NCBI GenBank assembly: GCA_964452935.1
Contig: CAYVNO010000003.1
Coordinates: forward strand, 18,163 to 82,162
Source of the DNA: an uncultured Methanosarcinales archaeon
GTDB taxonomy: Archaea; Nanobdellota; Nanobdellia; Woesearchaeales; DSVV01
Direction of reading: 5' to 3'
Length of the DNA: 64,000 nt
Every line of letters begins with the position of its first letter. The stretch's first letter is position 1. Made by a program: the position numbers and the translations under genes. The notes under the pieces were generated by a model. That model saw only the letters and a list, made by a program, of their open reading frames with translations, ran no database searches and was not told the origin of the DNA. This document shows positions 3,054 through 61,561 of this stretch, in pieces.

Positions 3054-3475
3054 GGTTAGTTGTAGATACAAACAGGATAATTGCTGCGTTAATCAAAGAT
3101 TCAACTTCCAGGAGAATAATCACACACATAGATGCAGAATTAATCACAATTGGTTTTTCAGACAAGGAAATACAAAAATATAAAAAATTAATTCTAAAAA
3201 AAGCAAAAATAACTGAAGAAGAATTAGAACTCATCTTAGAAAAATTAAAAGAAAAATTAACTATCCTTGATGATAACATAATAAATTTAAGAATAAAAGA
3301 AGCAAGCAAAATAATGGACAAAATTGATCCTGATGACACACCATTTATAACTGCAGCATTGGCAACTAAGTCTGATATTTGGTCTGATGATAAACATTTT
3401 GAAAAACAAAATAAAATTAGAGTCAAGAAAACATCTGATTTAGTTAAGTATGTTCAGTTCTCCATTGATATATAA
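3050..3475 (+). CDS. PIN-domain ribonuclease toxin (VapC-like)
   Basis: Starts MRLVVDTN. Later acidic positions DPDDTPF and SDDKHF fit the PIN catalytic quartet. Length is 141 aa. Confidence 0.7.
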   Translation: MRLVVDTNRIIAALIKDSTSRRIITHIDAELITIGFSDKEIQKYKKLILKKAKITEEELELILEKLKEKLTILDDNIINLRIKEASKIMDKIDPDDTPFITAALATKSDIWSDDKHFEKQNKIRVKKTSDLVKYVQFSIDI

Positions 3476-3521
3476 ATCAACCATTAACTTTATAAATAAA
3501 CCTGAATAATCTAATATTGCA

Positions 3522-4922
3522 ATGGCTAAACTATCAAAAAGATACTTTAAGCCAAGGTGGAGTTATCTGTCGCAAGACAGGTGGGGTGATTTAGTAATTG
3601 AAGACCATTCAGTTTGGGATCTATCTAAAAAATATGGTACTCCTCTCTACATCTTGGTTGAAAGCGAAATAAGAAAAAATCTACGAAGATTCAAAAAAGC
3701 TTTTCCATACAAAAATCTTCGCCCACAATACGCTTCTAAAAATAACACTAATCTAGAAATTCTAAAAATAGCCAGAGAAGAAGGTTTTGACATTGATGCA
3801 AGTAGCACAGGAGAAATAATTCTCGCATTACTAGCAGATTTTGAACCCCATCAAATAACATTCACAAATTTATACAAATCAGGACAAGATATAAGCTTTG
3901 CAGCAAAAGTTGGTGTGCAAGCAATAACAGCAGATTCAATTGAAGAAATAAGAAGAATAGCGTTAGTAGGAGAAAAACTAGGAAAAAAGATTAGACTCTT
4001 CCTAAGAATTAACCCTTTAATAAAATTAAATGGTGGATACACAACAAAAGATCAACAATACGGAATCCCGTGGACACAAGCAAAAGAAGCAATCGAACTA
4101 GCTAAAAAAAGAAGATACATACAACTAATCGGATTCCATTTTCATGGTGGTTACATTAAGTCACCAAAAGTTTATCATGCAGCAGCTAAAAAACTATTAT
4201 ACTTAATGAAACACAGTAAAGATAGAAACATAAACATAACTCACATTGATTTAGGTGGAGGATTCCCGATACAGTACAGAGATGAGGACATATTCACACC
4301 AGAATCTATGGGAAAACCTTTCATAAGATATTTCAAATCTCTACTAAAAAAACATAATTTACTCCCACCAACCCTAATCTTTGAACCAGGGAAACTGATT
4401 ACAGCAAATACTGGGATTGGACTTATGAAAATAGTGAGCGATAAACAAATAGGAAAAAAGAAAATACTAGTTACAGACGGATCAACATACGCTTTTGTAC
4501 CAGACCCATTAATCTATGGTTGTGAATATGAAATACTTCCTGCAACAAGCATGAAAGGAAGAAGAACTAAAAAATACCAAATTGCGGGTTGCACATGCGA
4601 CTCAATAGATATCATAGGAAAAAATATACTTCTCCCAGAGATGGAAGCAGATGATTTACTAGCAGTAATGGACTGTGGTGCTTACAGCAACGTAATGGCC
4701 TCAAACTTTAACACACTAAAAAAAGCTCCAATGGTAATGATCAAAGAATCAGGTAGAGCAAAACTTATAAGAAGAAGAGATCGTTATTCAGAAATGTTTG
4801 CTCCAGAACTAAATGTACTAAAAAGAGCAGATCCATACCAACTAAAAAAGTTCTATAACTTAACAAGAACAAACATAGACAAAGTATGGCAAGACGATGC
4901 ATATAAGAGGAAAAGAAAATGA
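3522..4922 (+). CDS. PLP-dependent group IV decarboxylase (Orn/DAP/Arg family), probable arginine decarboxylase
   Basis: Motifs YASKNN (PLP lysine region), HFHGG, DLGGGFP, FEPGK and CTCDSID. A 4-nt overlap with the downstream agmatinase suggests arginine as substrate. Confidence 0.75.
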   Translation: MAKLSKRYFKPRWSYLSQDRWGDLVIEDHSVWDLSKKYGTPLYILVESEIRKNLRRFKKAFPYKNLRPQYASKNNTNLEILKIAREEGFDIDASSTGEIILALLADFEPHQITFTNLYKSGQDISFAAKVGVQAITADSIEEIRRIALVGEKLGKKIRLFLRINPLIKLNGGYTTKDQQYGIPWTQAKEAIELAKKRRYIQLIGFHFHGGYIKSPKVYHAAAKKLLYLMKHSKDRNINITHIDLGGGFPIQYRDEDIFTPESMGKPFIRYFKSLLKKHNLLPPTLIFEPGKLITANTGIGLMKIVSDKQIGKKKILVTDGSTYAFVPDPLIYGCEYEILPATSMKGRRTKKYQIAGCTCDSIDIIGKNILLPEMEADDLLAVMDCGAYSNVMASNFNTLKKAPMVMIKESGRAKLIRRRDRYSEMFAPELNVLKRADPYQLKKFYNLTRTNIDKVWQDDAYKRKRK

Positions 4923-28291: not shown

Positions 28292-28400
28292 CTATTTCCC
28301 ACCTTCCTTTTATAATAGCATTAATCCTATTAATATCTAATAAAATGAATTTTCTACTATTATTTCAACTATTACCATTTATATATCTTTCTATATTATT

Positions 28401-28544
28401 GGCAAAGTCAACTAATGTGTGGTGGCGTCAGCCGTCACCAGGACCAGCGTTTGCAAATGCAAACCTGGTCGACGCTGACGTGGTCGGGGGACGCCCCCTT
28501 TGGGGTGACCCGTAGCCGCCAAACACACTTAACTTGACTTTGCC
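28401..28544. ncRNA. GC-rich long-helix-closed structured element E3
   Basis: GGCAAAGTCAA...TGTGTGGTGGC pairs with GCCGCCAAACACA...TTGACTTTGCC, about 25 bp with bulges. The core contains the nested hairpin GTCAGC(C)GTC..GACCAG..GTTTG-CAAATG-CAAAC..CTGGTC..GACGCTGAC. It also contains competing GGGGG-ACG-CCCCC and CCCC-TTT-GGGG pairings. It is far more GC-rich than its surroundings. Confidence 0.45.
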
Positions 28545-28613
28545 CAGTATATTAACCTAAATAAGAAATACACCAAACAAAACATATCAATAATCACTCA
28601 GAAGGAGCACCCA

Positions 28614-35492: not shown

Positions 35493-36506
35493 ATGAAAAA
35501 AAGAATATTGTTTCCAAAGAATAAACAAAAACAATTTTTAGAAAACACAGTATCCAATCTGGATATAACTTGGCAGGATTTAGCAAAAAAAATGGATGTG
35601 AACATAAACACATTCTCTAAAACATATAGATTTGAAAAATCCAGAATACCTGAAAAGATATTTCTAAAATTATGCAGCCTACTCAACGCAGATAGCAAAG
35701 AAATTTTAAAATTATACAATGGGAAGATCACAAATGATGGAAACATTAGGATCAGAAAAGTGTTGGGTGAAACAAGAACAAAAATAAATAATATCAAGAT
35801 AACATTCAGGAATTGTGATGACTCATTAGAAATAAGAAATATAAAATATTCAAATGCTGACAGAGAAAAGAACCTACTTCTTCCTAATAAATTAACTGTT
35901 GAATTAGCAGAGGAGATAGGGATGCATATTGGTGACGGTTACTTGTCCGGGAAGAAGAATGATTACAGATTAAAAGGCAATAAACATGATGAAAAAGAAT
36001 ATTACAACACCCATGTAAGAAATTTATACAAAAAATTATTCAATCTAAACATAAAAATAAAAGAGTATGATTCAACATATGGTTTTGAGGTTTATTCAAA
36101 GGCACTACATGAATTCAAATCAAATGTACTGAAATTGCCAAAGGGAAGAAAATCAGACATAAGGATACCTGAGAAAATTAAAATAAATAATTCTAAAATA
36201 TTGGCTTCTTTTTTGAGAGGATTATTCGATACCGATGGTAATATTTACTTCCAGTCTAGGTATGGTTATAGACATTATTATCCTAGGATATCCGTAGCTC
36301 AAAAATCAGAAAAACTTATAAAAGAAGTGGCATTAATACTCAAAATGTTAGGTTTCAGGCCATCAATATATGTTGGCAAGGAAGCTACGAGCGTTAGCCT
36401 ACATGGATACAATTCCTTGAAACACTTCATGGATATCGTTGGATTCAATAACCCAAAACACTTGAAAAAAGTGAGGAAATGGGAGGAAATGTATCCCAAA
36501 ATTTAA
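35493..36506 (+). CDS. Free-standing double-motif LAGLIDADG-family protein with N-terminal HTH-like region
   Basis: Two LAGLIDADG-type motifs: LAEEIGMHIGDGYLSG and LASFLRGLFDTDGNIYF. It is not inside an intron or intein. Its stop lies 1 nt before the tRNA gene. Confidence 0.7.
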   Translation: MKKRILFPKNKQKQFLENTVSNLDITWQDLAKKMDVNINTFSKTYRFEKSRIPEKIFLKLCSLLNADSKEILKLYNGKITNDGNIRIRKVLGETRTKINNIKITFRNCDDSLEIRNIKYSNADREKNLLLPNKLTVELAEEIGMHIGDGYLSGKKNDYRLKGNKHDEKEYYNTHVRNLYKKLFNLNIKIKEYDSTYGFEVYSKALHEFKSNVLKLPKGRKSDIRIPEKIKINNSKILASFLRGLFDTDGNIYFQSRYGYRHYYPRISVAQKSEKLIKEVALILKMLGFRPSIYVGKEATSVSLHGYNSLKHFMDIVGFNNPKHLKKVRKWEEMYPKI

Positions 36507-46686: not shown

Positions 46687-46708
46687 ATTTACCACCTTCG
46701 CCTATTTT

Positions 46709-46811
46709 AGCACTACTGCCAAGACCGGCCTTGAAATCAATGCGAACAACGACGGTTCAACTCGGTTTCGGCTTCGAAACACCGAATCGAGCAATCGGTC
46801 GCAGTAGTGCT
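46709..46811. other. Long-helix-closed intergenic element E4 immediately upstream of lysW
   Basis: AGCACTACTGC (46709-46719) pairs with GCAGTAGTGCT (46801-46811). Inner stems are GACCG/CGGTC, a CTCG..TTCGG/CCGAA..CGAG hairpin and a TTGAA/TTCAA hairpin. Confidence 0.35.
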
Positions 46812-46873
46812 AATTATATATAGAAGTAGTAACAATTCATCAGATATAAACATTATGTTATTATAATAACAAA

Positions 46874-61201: not shown

Positions 61202-61249
61202 ATAGAACTCATAGTAATTAGGGTTTATATTTTTTATTAAAATAATGGA

Positions 61250-61520
61250 TGGGGTTGCTGGGACTTTCGTAACCACCTCTTTACTTGGTGACTAAGCGAG
61301 TGCACATGAGCGCATGTCGCCTTCGCTCCCAATCGGCGAAATGATTGATTCGAACCCAGATTTCAACTCCTAATAACTCAAATTACCAGGATCCGTTGGT
61401 ATAGCCCTTTGTAAGTCATCAGTCAAAAGACCTCATCGCTCCACAAAGTCTGGAGCCAACTATCTGCTCGGAAAAGGGTCTAAACCCATTTTCCTTCTAG
61501 CCAGGTTATACTACAACCCC
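61250..61520 (-). tRNA. tRNA-Trp(CCA) with multiple introns (271-nt gene)
   Basis: On the minus strand: acceptor GGGGTTG/CAACCCC with discriminator A. Anticodon stem GTTGG/CCAAC with loop CTCCAG^A (anticodon at 61453-61451), split by a 49-nt intron whose TGGAG pairs with CTCCA. T-arm CTGGG-TTCGAAT...CCCAG, split by about 85 nt. Extra inserts of about 30 nt lie in the D and variable regions. A TATA-like ATATTTATATAT lies upstream. Confidence 0.75.
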
Positions 61521-61561
61521 ATCTAAGAATTAAAAGAACTATCTGCCATATATAAATATTA

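Follow-up and report, generated by a model that had tools for sequence, protein, structure and literature searches.

Transfer RNA (tRNA) genes interrupted by several introns are known from Thermoproteales, Thaumarchaeota and the Asgard lineages Atabeyarchaeia and Freyarchaeia. Their introns are spliced by proteins at bulge-helix-bulge (BHB) motifs or at HBh' motifs, occupy canonical and non-canonical sites, escape simple gene finders and vary in presence between relatives. The same traits recur in the gene described here, a tRNA-Trp(CCA) gene of 271 bases on the minus strand (positions 61520..61250) of a 64,000-nucleotide (nt) stretch of DNA, henceforth called the window. The window is archaeal, because it carries an Archaea_SRP RNA at positions 2471-2740 (Rfam). 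Very probably, the gene is a functional one of an AT-rich archaeon and consists of five exons and four introns, with a predicted precursor of about 271 nt.

Among archaeal tRNA introns, positions 37/38, 45/46, 59/60 and 22/23 are documented (PMC4090602). The window gene uses the first three of these sites, and its fourth site, 23/24, is 1 nt from 22/23. Reviews give a maximum of three introns per tRNA gene (PMC4033280, published in 2014; PMC8450103, published in 2021). However, Supplementary Data 4 of PMC11291895 (Valentin-Alvarado et al. 2024) lists four-intron Asgard tRNAs: a tRNA-Trp(CCA) of 231 nt from Atabeyarchaeia-2, and Arg-TCT, Ile2-CAT and Leu-GAG from Freyarchaeia. A four-intron tRNA gene as such is therefore already known, and the window gene is a further, well-supported example. 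An initial annotation of the locus had called its intron density notable, which is fair when measured against the maximum given in the reviews but not when the Asgard table is considered. What sets the window gene apart from the multi-intron genes described so far is that it resides in an AT-rich, DPANN-like genome, its nearest labelled orthologue belonging to a Woesearchaeota metagenome-assembled genome (MAG); that 73% of it is intron and one of its exons has 8 nt; and that its 45/46 intron mimics a strand of the anticodon stem and competes with the canonical splice motif.

Disrupted tRNA genes are also known in DPANN archaea, as the split tRNAs of Nanoarchaeum equitans and the non-canonical introns of ARMAN-2. 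Small AT-rich genomes, relaxed BHB substrates and tRNA sets reported as incomplete by prediction programs are common to those cases and to the window; unlike them, the window gene is contiguous, neither split nor permuted, and has four introns in cis. Kaneta et al. 2018 (PMC5829648) noted that tRNA genes are more heavily disrupted in the DPANN groups Woese- and Pacearchaeota, where further disrupted genes probably go undetected. In the literature searched, we found no paper on four-intron tRNAs or on a reduced kink-turn (K-turn) intron in DPANN-type archaea. Judging from the label of one orthologue, the source lineage of the window is apparently of DPANN / Woesearchaeota type.

A third relevant system is the box C/D intron of euryarchaeal pre-tRNA-Trp (Haloferax volcanii; Pyrococcus sR50), which guides 2'-O-methylation of C34 (Cm34) and of U39 (Um39). 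Our comparison with this intron, made below, relies on reviews and general knowledge.

Exon-intron structure of the tRNA-Trp gene

Read from the minus strand, the locus starts with GGGGUUG and ends with CAACCCCA. All the exon elements proposed in the initial annotation were found in place: the acceptor stem GGGGTTG/CAACCCC followed by A73, the anticodon stem GTTGG/CCAAC with loop CTCCAG^A, and the T-arm CTGGG/TTCGAAT/CCCAG. ARAGORN detected no genuine tRNA in the raw window or in the locus, even when introns were allowed and thresholds relaxed; at -ps80, it made a spurious tRNA-Glu call on the wrong strand. Rfam searches of the raw sequence at the gathering threshold and at E<=10 yielded no tRNA or C/D family at the locus, and chance-level matches only. 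In turn, the 74-nt product obtained by removal of all four inserts was called tRNA-Trp(cca) by ARAGORN with default settings. Upon removal of introns 1, 3 and 4, ARAGORN -i reported Trp(cca) with a canonical intron of 49 nt, and none of the partially spliced versions was called without the intron option.

The gene thus delimited has 74 exon bases, and its introns make up 197 nt of the precursor. In the feature list that follows, L008, L013, L042 and L049 are the orthologues introduced in the next section.

61496..61520, minus strand: exon 1, 25 nt, positions 1-23, set by its match to the L049 D-arm and by the ARAGORN cloverleaf; acceptor GGGGUUG, U8 A9, D-stem GUAU, D-loop AACCUGGCUA, G22 A23
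61464..61495, minus strand: intron 1, 32 nt, at 23/24, within the D-stem's 3' strand; absent in L049
61450..61463, minus strand: exon 2, 14 nt, positions 24-37; A24 U25 A26, GUUGG, C32 U33 C34 C35 A36 G37
61401..61449, minus strand: intron 2, 49 nt, at the canonical site 37/38; present in five of five orthologues, holds the putative guide and the K-turn module
61393..61400, minus strand: exon 3, 8 nt, positions 38-45; A38, anticodon-stem CCAAC, G44 G45
61362..61392, minus strand: intron 3, 31 nt, at 45/46; absent in L049, L008 and L042, with a homologue in L013
61349..61361, minus strand: exon 4, 13 nt, positions 46-59; A46 U48, T-stem CUGGG, U54-A59
61264..61348, minus strand: intron 4, 85 nt, 51% G+C, at 59/60 in the T-loop; absent in L008, L013 and L042
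61250..61263, minus strand: exon 5, 14 nt, positions 60-73; U60, CCCAG, CAACCCC, discriminator A73

The expected splice junctions are A23|A24, G37|A38, G45|A46 and A59|U60, and the 3' CCA is not encoded in the gene. Intron 1 contains the hairpin GGAAAA-TGGGTTTAGACCC-TTTTCC, and the interior of intron 4 forms a long irregular hairpin. The sizes anticipated in the initial annotation were accurate: about 30 extra nt with that hairpin in the D region (32 nt), a 49-nt canonical intron, about 30 extra nt in the variable region (31 nt) and a paired, GC-rich insert of about 85 nt (85 nt). The D-arm and variable-region borders, which the initial annotation could not place exactly, are resolved as 23/24 and 45/46. 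The variable loop is the 4-nt sequence GGAU. A 5-nt loop, GGAUC, with the intron placed inside the T-stem was considered and rejected, as three orthologues read GGAU CUGGG contiguously.

The tRNA-Trp gene is the only tRNA gene recognised in the 64-kb window: ARAGORN detected no tRNA in the whole window, and a search on both strands for an intact T-arm (5-bp stem and TTCRA-type loop) found none outside the locus. That a tRNA-Trp gene is missed by both ARAGORN and Rfam fits the suspicion, raised in PMC5829648, that incomplete DPANN tRNA sets hide disrupted genes. Where a tRNA-Trp gene is reported as missing although it is only fragmented, its absence could be mistaken for host dependence or for codon reassignment.

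Orthologues and intron borders

The intron borders were defined by comparison of five genes (n=5), the window gene and four orthologues from other archaea. Two orthologues, L013 from a Candidatus Woesearchaeota MAG and L008 from a MAG with 29% G+C labelled Methanosarcinales, were the only real ones among 20 matches obtained when GTDB genomes were scanned with an exon-only pattern (anticodon stem-loop, gap, 3' strand); the other 18 were chance matches in bacteria. In metagenomes, the pattern scan gave 25 matches, of which the real ones were L042, from a JGI metagenome, and L031, which is identical to L013. A scan of viral contigs returned chance matches only. These scans are not exhaustive, as JGI contig Ga0118720_1002464 (L047), an exact match, was missed by the metagenome scan; the metagenome collection scanned is not a superset of the contigs reachable via protein look-up, which limits the negative scans. 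Two of the five orthologues were picked up by patterns that require portions of the conserved sequence.

The fourth orthologue, L049, was reached through the neighbouring AglB/STT3 protein. Because its AglB is only 32% identical to that of the window, the two genomes must be deeply diverged. The gene order is nevertheless the same (STT3, DUF192, small protein, tRNA, large acidic protein). When more distant AglB homologues (P0003-P0005) were used, the gene order was different and no tRNA was found. The tRNA-Trp gene of L049 (4423-4574, plus strand) has the same neighbours as the window gene (61250-61520, minus strand) and the opposite orientation relative to them; therefore, a local inversion of the tRNA gene alone would have occurred in one of the lineages.

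The comparison places each of the three non-canonical inserts at an exact site, since an orthologue without the insert reads as the window minus the insert. In the D region, the L049 D-arm GUAUAACCUGGCUAGAAUAG is uninterrupted and the window is identical to it except for 32 extra bases. In the variable region, L049, L008 and L042 read CCAxC-GGAU/UGCU-CUGGG without insert. No insert breaks the T-loop of L008, L013 or L042. The canonical intron, 45-61 nt long, is present in all five.

The sites are shared to varying degrees. L013 has at 45/46 a homologous 31-nt intron that is identical to that of the window at 25/31 positions, and L049 has at 59/60, exactly the same site, a 31-nt BHB intron (register A5 B3 C9) unrelated in sequence to the 85-nt intron of the window. 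The L013 gene (216 nt; 3458-3673, minus strand) has four introns as well, of 20 nt (15/16), 30 nt (22/23), 61 nt (37/38) and 31 nt (45/46). In L008, the D-region intron admits two registers of similar quality and its borders are ambiguous. Altogether, introns are found at five different sites (15/16, 22-24, 37/38, 45/46 and 59/60). Paralogues of the introns, which would point to transposition, were searched for in the rest of the window and not found. With their variable presence and with unrelated sequences at the same site, the five orthologues provide a compact series for the study of intron gain, loss and turnover outside Thermoproteales and Asgard.

Splice motifs at the four insertion sites

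Bases repeated at the borders of an insert allow several equivalent placements, and every placement was scored for archaeal splice geometry: an outer helix, a 4-bp central helix, a 3-nt bulge cut after its second base and an inner helix, mirrored on the other strand. The null consisted of dinucleotide shuffles with random placements of the same insert length, taking the best of four rotations each. Since an unconstrained BHB scan of the locus produced many chance motifs and was uninformative alone, only the comparatively defined sites were scored against shuffles. In every insert, one register only gave a BHB motif with 3-nt bulges 4 bp apart, and the null fractions ranged from 0.0045 to < 5e-5. 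The view that the four interruptions are BHB-type introns, already put forward in the initial annotation, is thus upheld both by the rarity of the geometry in shuffles and by the absence of the inserts, except the canonical one, from orthologues. The individual motifs can be described as follows:

(i). At 23/24, the motif is a near-strict hBHBh', CUG GCUA GA|A GGAAAA...UUUUCC GAGC AG|A UAG (register A3 B3 C6; null 0.0045). Its outer helix borrows U25-G27.

(ii). At 37/38, a relaxed BHB uses the anticodon stem as outer helix, followed by CUCC, the AG|A bulge and an inner helix of 8 pairs, CUUUGUGG/UUACAAAG, with a relaxed 3' half (register A5 B2 C8; null fraction 5e-5).

(iii). At 45/46, a relaxed HBh' motif is found, CAAC GG|A UCCUGGUAAUU...AGUUAUUAGGA GUUG AA|A, with an 11-bp inner helix (register B4 C11; null 6e-4). 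In the central helix, exon positions 40-43 pair with a GUUG of the intron, a mimic of the anticodon-stem 5' strand.

(iv). At 59/60, the motif is a near-strict BHB compatible with the cloverleaf, CUGGG UUCG AA|U (C)AAUCAUUUC...GAGGUGGUU(A) CGAA AG|U CCCAG (register A5 B4, with nine inner pairs after a C.A mismatch; null < 5e-5).

Folding the complete precursor without constraints gave a minimum free energy (MFE) structure that contains the acceptor stem, both the 45/46 and the 59/60 motif and also the guide hairpin, in which UGGAGC of the canonical intron pairs with G31-A36. In L013, the introns at 15/16 and 22/23 have 4/4 central pairs.

A second, nested BHB-like motif was noticed inside intron 4, at 61278-61334 on the minus strand: AUCAUU UCGC CG|A UUGG ... 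CCAA GUAA AG|A GGUGGU. Removal of this nested 55-nt element would leave a 30-nt hairpin intron, approximately the size of the 31-nt 59/60 intron of L049. The central helix of the nested motif is weak (3/4 pairs), the MFE fold favours a 5x5 internal loop there, and the motif could be due to chance.

Selection on the spliced cloverleaf

Once spliced, the cloverleaf is 96% paired across the five orthologues. Both-sided changes are found at 5:68 (U-A, C-G, A-U, G.U), 6:67 and 28:42. When the structure was slid by 1-3 columns as a control, pairing fell to 33-52% and no both-sided change was seen. The U5-A68 pair of the window itself differs on both sides from its relatives, and its partners are about 260 nt apart in the gene. 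All the universal nucleotides are present: U8, A14, G18 G19, U33, U54 U55 C56 and A58.

The archaeal and eukaryal identity set for tRNA-Trp comprises the CCA anticodon, U33, A73 and G1-C72. The spliced product shows the loop C32 U33 C34 C35 A36 G37 A38, the discriminator A73 and the G1-C72 pair. Its cloverleaf has an acceptor stem of 7 bp, a D-stem of 4 bp with one A.A mismatch, and anticodon and T stems of 5 bp each.

Functional gene or remnant

Several points weigh against a functional four-intron gene. The D-stem carries an A12.A23 mismatch. The central helices of the splice motifs are imperfect, with 3/4 pairs in the D motif and 2/4 pairs in the canonical motif. Splicing endonuclease, RtcB, L7Ae, Nop5 and fibrillarin were not found in the 59 open reading frames (ORFs) of the 64-kb window by a Pfam scan that included EndA. 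Besides, 64 kb is all that is seen of the genome, and a second tRNA-Trp gene may exist elsewhere. Lastly, transcription, splicing, circular introns and Cm34 are predictions from sequence.

Decay was the alternative raised in the initial annotation: the locus would be a tRNA-Trp pseudogene disrupted by insertions, while a working gene resides elsewhere in the genome. The limited view of the genome, the failure of ARAGORN and Rfam to recognise the locus and the A12.A23 mismatch are compatible with this idea. The mismatch, however, looks like a clade feature rather than a sign of decay because it is kept in four of five orthologues. The remaining evidence points in the opposite direction: the acceptor and anticodon stems are held by compensatory changes, including the long-distance U5-A68 pair, the exons retain every universal tRNA nucleotide, all four inserts keep splice motifs in exactly the register whose excision gives the mature sequence, and the gene occupies the same syntenic place in the deeply diverged L049. 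Given the compensatory changes, the universal nucleotides and the sharing of the mismatch, a pseudogene is unlikely, and we would assign it only a very small share of the probability. A comparably small share goes to the possibility that one or more of the non-canonical inserts escape splicing and form an extra arm in an atypical tRNA or a tRNA-like RNA. The variable-region insert (31 nt) and the T-loop insert (85 nt) do form stable hairpins, and the 45/46 motif lacks an outer helix. Yet orthologues precisely lack both inserts, which makes them dispensable for the tRNA body; with 85 nt left between A59 and U60, neither the T-loop nor its contact with the D-loop would survive; both inserts show a pair of 3-nt bulges separated by 4 bp in the register from which the canonical sequence is regained, a geometry rare by chance; and both 45/46 and 59/60 are documented intron sites.

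An artefact of assembly or binning, for instance a chimeric join of tRNA fragments, might be feared in a sequence of metagenomic source and unknown assembly quality. Such an origin can be set aside with near certainty, because two more, independent metagenome assemblies carry the same sequence: a region of 381 nt is base-for-base the same in ENA ERZ23499057 and JGI 3300009374, which come from different samples and sources, and the flanking 7.5-10 kb are 99.9-100% identical to the window. In addition, the relatives L013 and L049 have a gene architecture comparable to that of the window gene. A functional tRNA-Trp gene with four introns is thus the reading retained below.

A K-turn module in the canonical intron

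The intron at 37/38 contains two elements that are shared by all five orthologues:

61438..61443, minus strand: antisense element UGGAGC, pairs with G31-A36 (GCUCCA); invariant and 100% paired in five of five
61413..61436, minus strand: K-turn module, made of a D'-like box AUGA (61436..61433), a hairpin GGUC-UUUU-GACU (61432..61421) and a C'-like box GAUGACUU (61420..61413)

The layout UGGAGCG, A(U/A)GA, hairpin, (G/A)AU-GA, (C/U)U(U/A) is found in all five genes, with a K-turn core of AUGA, hairpin and RAUGAYUU whose GA...GA arrangement is invariant. Outside the hairpin, the canonical introns of the window and L049 are identical at 37 of 38 positions, even though the two genomes are deeply diverged. 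The stem of the hairpin covaries among orthologues (GGUC/GACU, GGC/GCC, GCA/UGC, GCUUU/AAAGC). A K-turn signature can be recognised: GA lies directly 5' of a regular stem, and on the opposite strand a 3-nt bulge and then another GA come after the stem; in the C'-like box GAUGACUU, the bulge is GAU, then GA. The K-turn has the arrangement of an internal D'/C' motif, as known from box C/D RNAs. Its D'-like box is AUGA and not CUGA, and its C'-like box carries a U in place of the consensus G, changes that turn the D'1:C'6 pair from C-G into A-U.

The consensus architecture of box C/D RNAs and the N+5 rule have been reviewed (PMC7994747). The fifth nucleotide upstream of AUGA, a G, pairs with C34, the nucleotide whose methylation the tRNA-Trp intron directs in Haloferax and Pyrococcus (PMC4090602, PMC6313347, PMC7994747). 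The window intron and the euryarchaeal box C/D intron share the tRNA, the 37/38 site, an intron K-turn, an antisense to the anticodon loop with C34 placed five nt upstream of a D-type box, and a guide structure that is mutually exclusive with the splice motif. They differ in that the window intron has a single internal K-turn of C'/D' type with a closed hairpin and no terminal C/D pair; in the boxes (AUGA and RAUGAYUU here, CUGA and RUGAUGA in the euryarchaeal intron); in the length of the guide (6 bp instead of 10-12 nt); and in the size of the intron (45-61 nt), the lack of a guide for position 39 and the lack of an Rfam match. By analogy, the canonical intron looks like a reduced form of its euryarchaeal box C/D counterpart in tRNA-Trp.

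Does this module guide methylation? We slightly favour the view that the canonical intron acts like a C/D guide: L7Ae, Nop5 and fibrillarin would be recruited in cis, and C34 would receive a 2'-O-methyl group ahead of splicing, as with the euryarchaeal tRNA-Trp intron. Several observations weigh against such a role: the antisense duplex has 6 contiguous pairs flanked by G.G mismatches, compared with the usual 10-12 nt; a terminal pair of box C (RUGAUGA) and box D (CUGA) is not found at the intron ends (ACUUUGU... / ...GGGCUAU); the D'-like box departs from CUGA; no C/D family of Rfam was matched at the gathering threshold or at E<=10; and the covariation of the K-turn is statistically modest with five orthologues. 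Moreover, downstream of the C'-like box we found neither a D box nor complementarity that could make a second guide for position 39, which is a C in this tRNA.

Efficient methylation by archaeal C/D ribonucleoproteins normally requires both the C/D and the C'/D' motifs. This established requirement, together with the short duplex, the aberrant box, the missing terminal K-turn and second guide and the failure to match Rfam, lends some weight to a different role, somewhat less probable in our opinion: the K-turn and UGGAGC would not guide methylation, and would instead serve as a folding or splicing aid bound by L7Ae, or UGGAGC would mask the anticodon in the precursor. What tips the balance towards a guide is that, with AUGA taken as the box, N+5 falls exactly on C34; that the change of the D'1:C'6 pair from C-G to A-U keeps the K-turn geometry; and that the module has stayed unchanged in genomes that are deeply diverged, whereas other introns at a same site have diverged beyond recognition.

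The canonical intron is not assigned to the box C/D family, because the terminal C/D pair, a guide of 10-12 nt, a guide for position 39 and an Rfam match are absent; its likeness to a guide is stated without family membership. Of the features proposed in the initial annotation, the pairing of TGGAG with the anticodon withstood the comparison and extends to UGGAGC with G31-A36 in all five genes. The box C/D-like words fared unevenly: GCGATGA and CTGATGA are present and a single K-turn is conserved, but the CTGA word is not conserved and a full C/D RNA is not found.

If the intron does direct methylation, the K-turn with C34 at N+5 suggests that an intron-guided Cm34 system also exists in DPANN-type archaea in a reduced form, and such a guide would inform on the minimal requirements of box C/D guides.

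A possible order of processing

In the mechanism that we propose, the archaeal splicing endonuclease would cut after the second nucleotide of each 3-nt BHB bulge and remove the four introns, a tRNA ligase would join the five exons, and CCA would be added afterwards. The enzymes presumed to take part are EndA, RtcB, the CCA-adding enzyme and, for methylation, L7Ae/Nop5/fibrillarin.

An order of events is suggested by the motifs themselves. The central helix of the 45/46 motif would take bases 40-43, and the canonical motif needs the same anticodon stem as its outer helix. The two motifs cannot coexist because both use the 3' strand of the anticodon stem; therefore, removal of the 45/46 intron, or refolding of the RNA, would have to precede formation of the canonical motif. 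In this model, the canonical intron is probably spliced last, after the 45/46 intron. Sequestration of bases 40-43 would in turn leave G31-A36 free to pair with the guide, and methylation might then occur before canonical splicing. One speculation is that the 45/46 intron could license guide action, a form of cooperation between introns in which modification comes first and splicing last.

More tentatively, and with a chance that we consider low, the locus may exemplify a minimal cis guide conserved in a DPANN clade, with a single K-turn and a 6-bp antisense, perhaps licensed by the 45/46 intron, while the 85-nt intron may nest another.

Sequence context and other features of the window

The locus is a G+C island (42-52%, compared with 24-35% in the flanks and 33.5% in the whole window). 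Its folding is more stable than that of shuffled sequences (z = -4.8), and its two ends pair as the acceptor stem. In the MFE fold, the flanks GAU (61521-61523) and AUC (61247-61249) lengthen the acceptor helix of the precursor to 10 bp. This 3-bp extension was discarded as a feature and is treated as a coincidence, as it is not kept in orthologues.

Upstream of the gene, a TATA-like box can be read from the sequence:

61549..61556, minus strand: TATA-like box TTTATATA, at -36..-29 from the mature 5' end

The four orthologues (n=4) have A/T boxes at similar distances. The box is a possible archaeal promoter, although in a genome with 33% G+C the evidence is weak.

Other features were noticed elsewhere in the window. 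At 28398-28552 (plus strand), an intergenic G+C island of up to 67% is predicted to fold with a long closing stem and a branched interior (MFE -80 kcal/mol, z = -7.8), and a TTTATATAT box lies just 5' of it. This island had no Rfam match at E<=1 and was not called a tRNA by ARAGORN; it is a candidate structured RNA of unknown kind. At 46704-46816 (minus strand), another intergenic RNA candidate of about 110 nt has a 12-bp terminal stem, AGCACUACUGC.../...GCAGUAGUGCU (z = -5.2), with no Rfam match at E<=1 and with a TATATATAATTA box directly upstream on the same strand. Finally, at 35493-36503 (plus strand), a 337-amino acid ORF contains a LAGLIDADG_3 domain (E = 2e-11) and could encode a homing endonuclease, either free-standing or associated with an intron or an intein.

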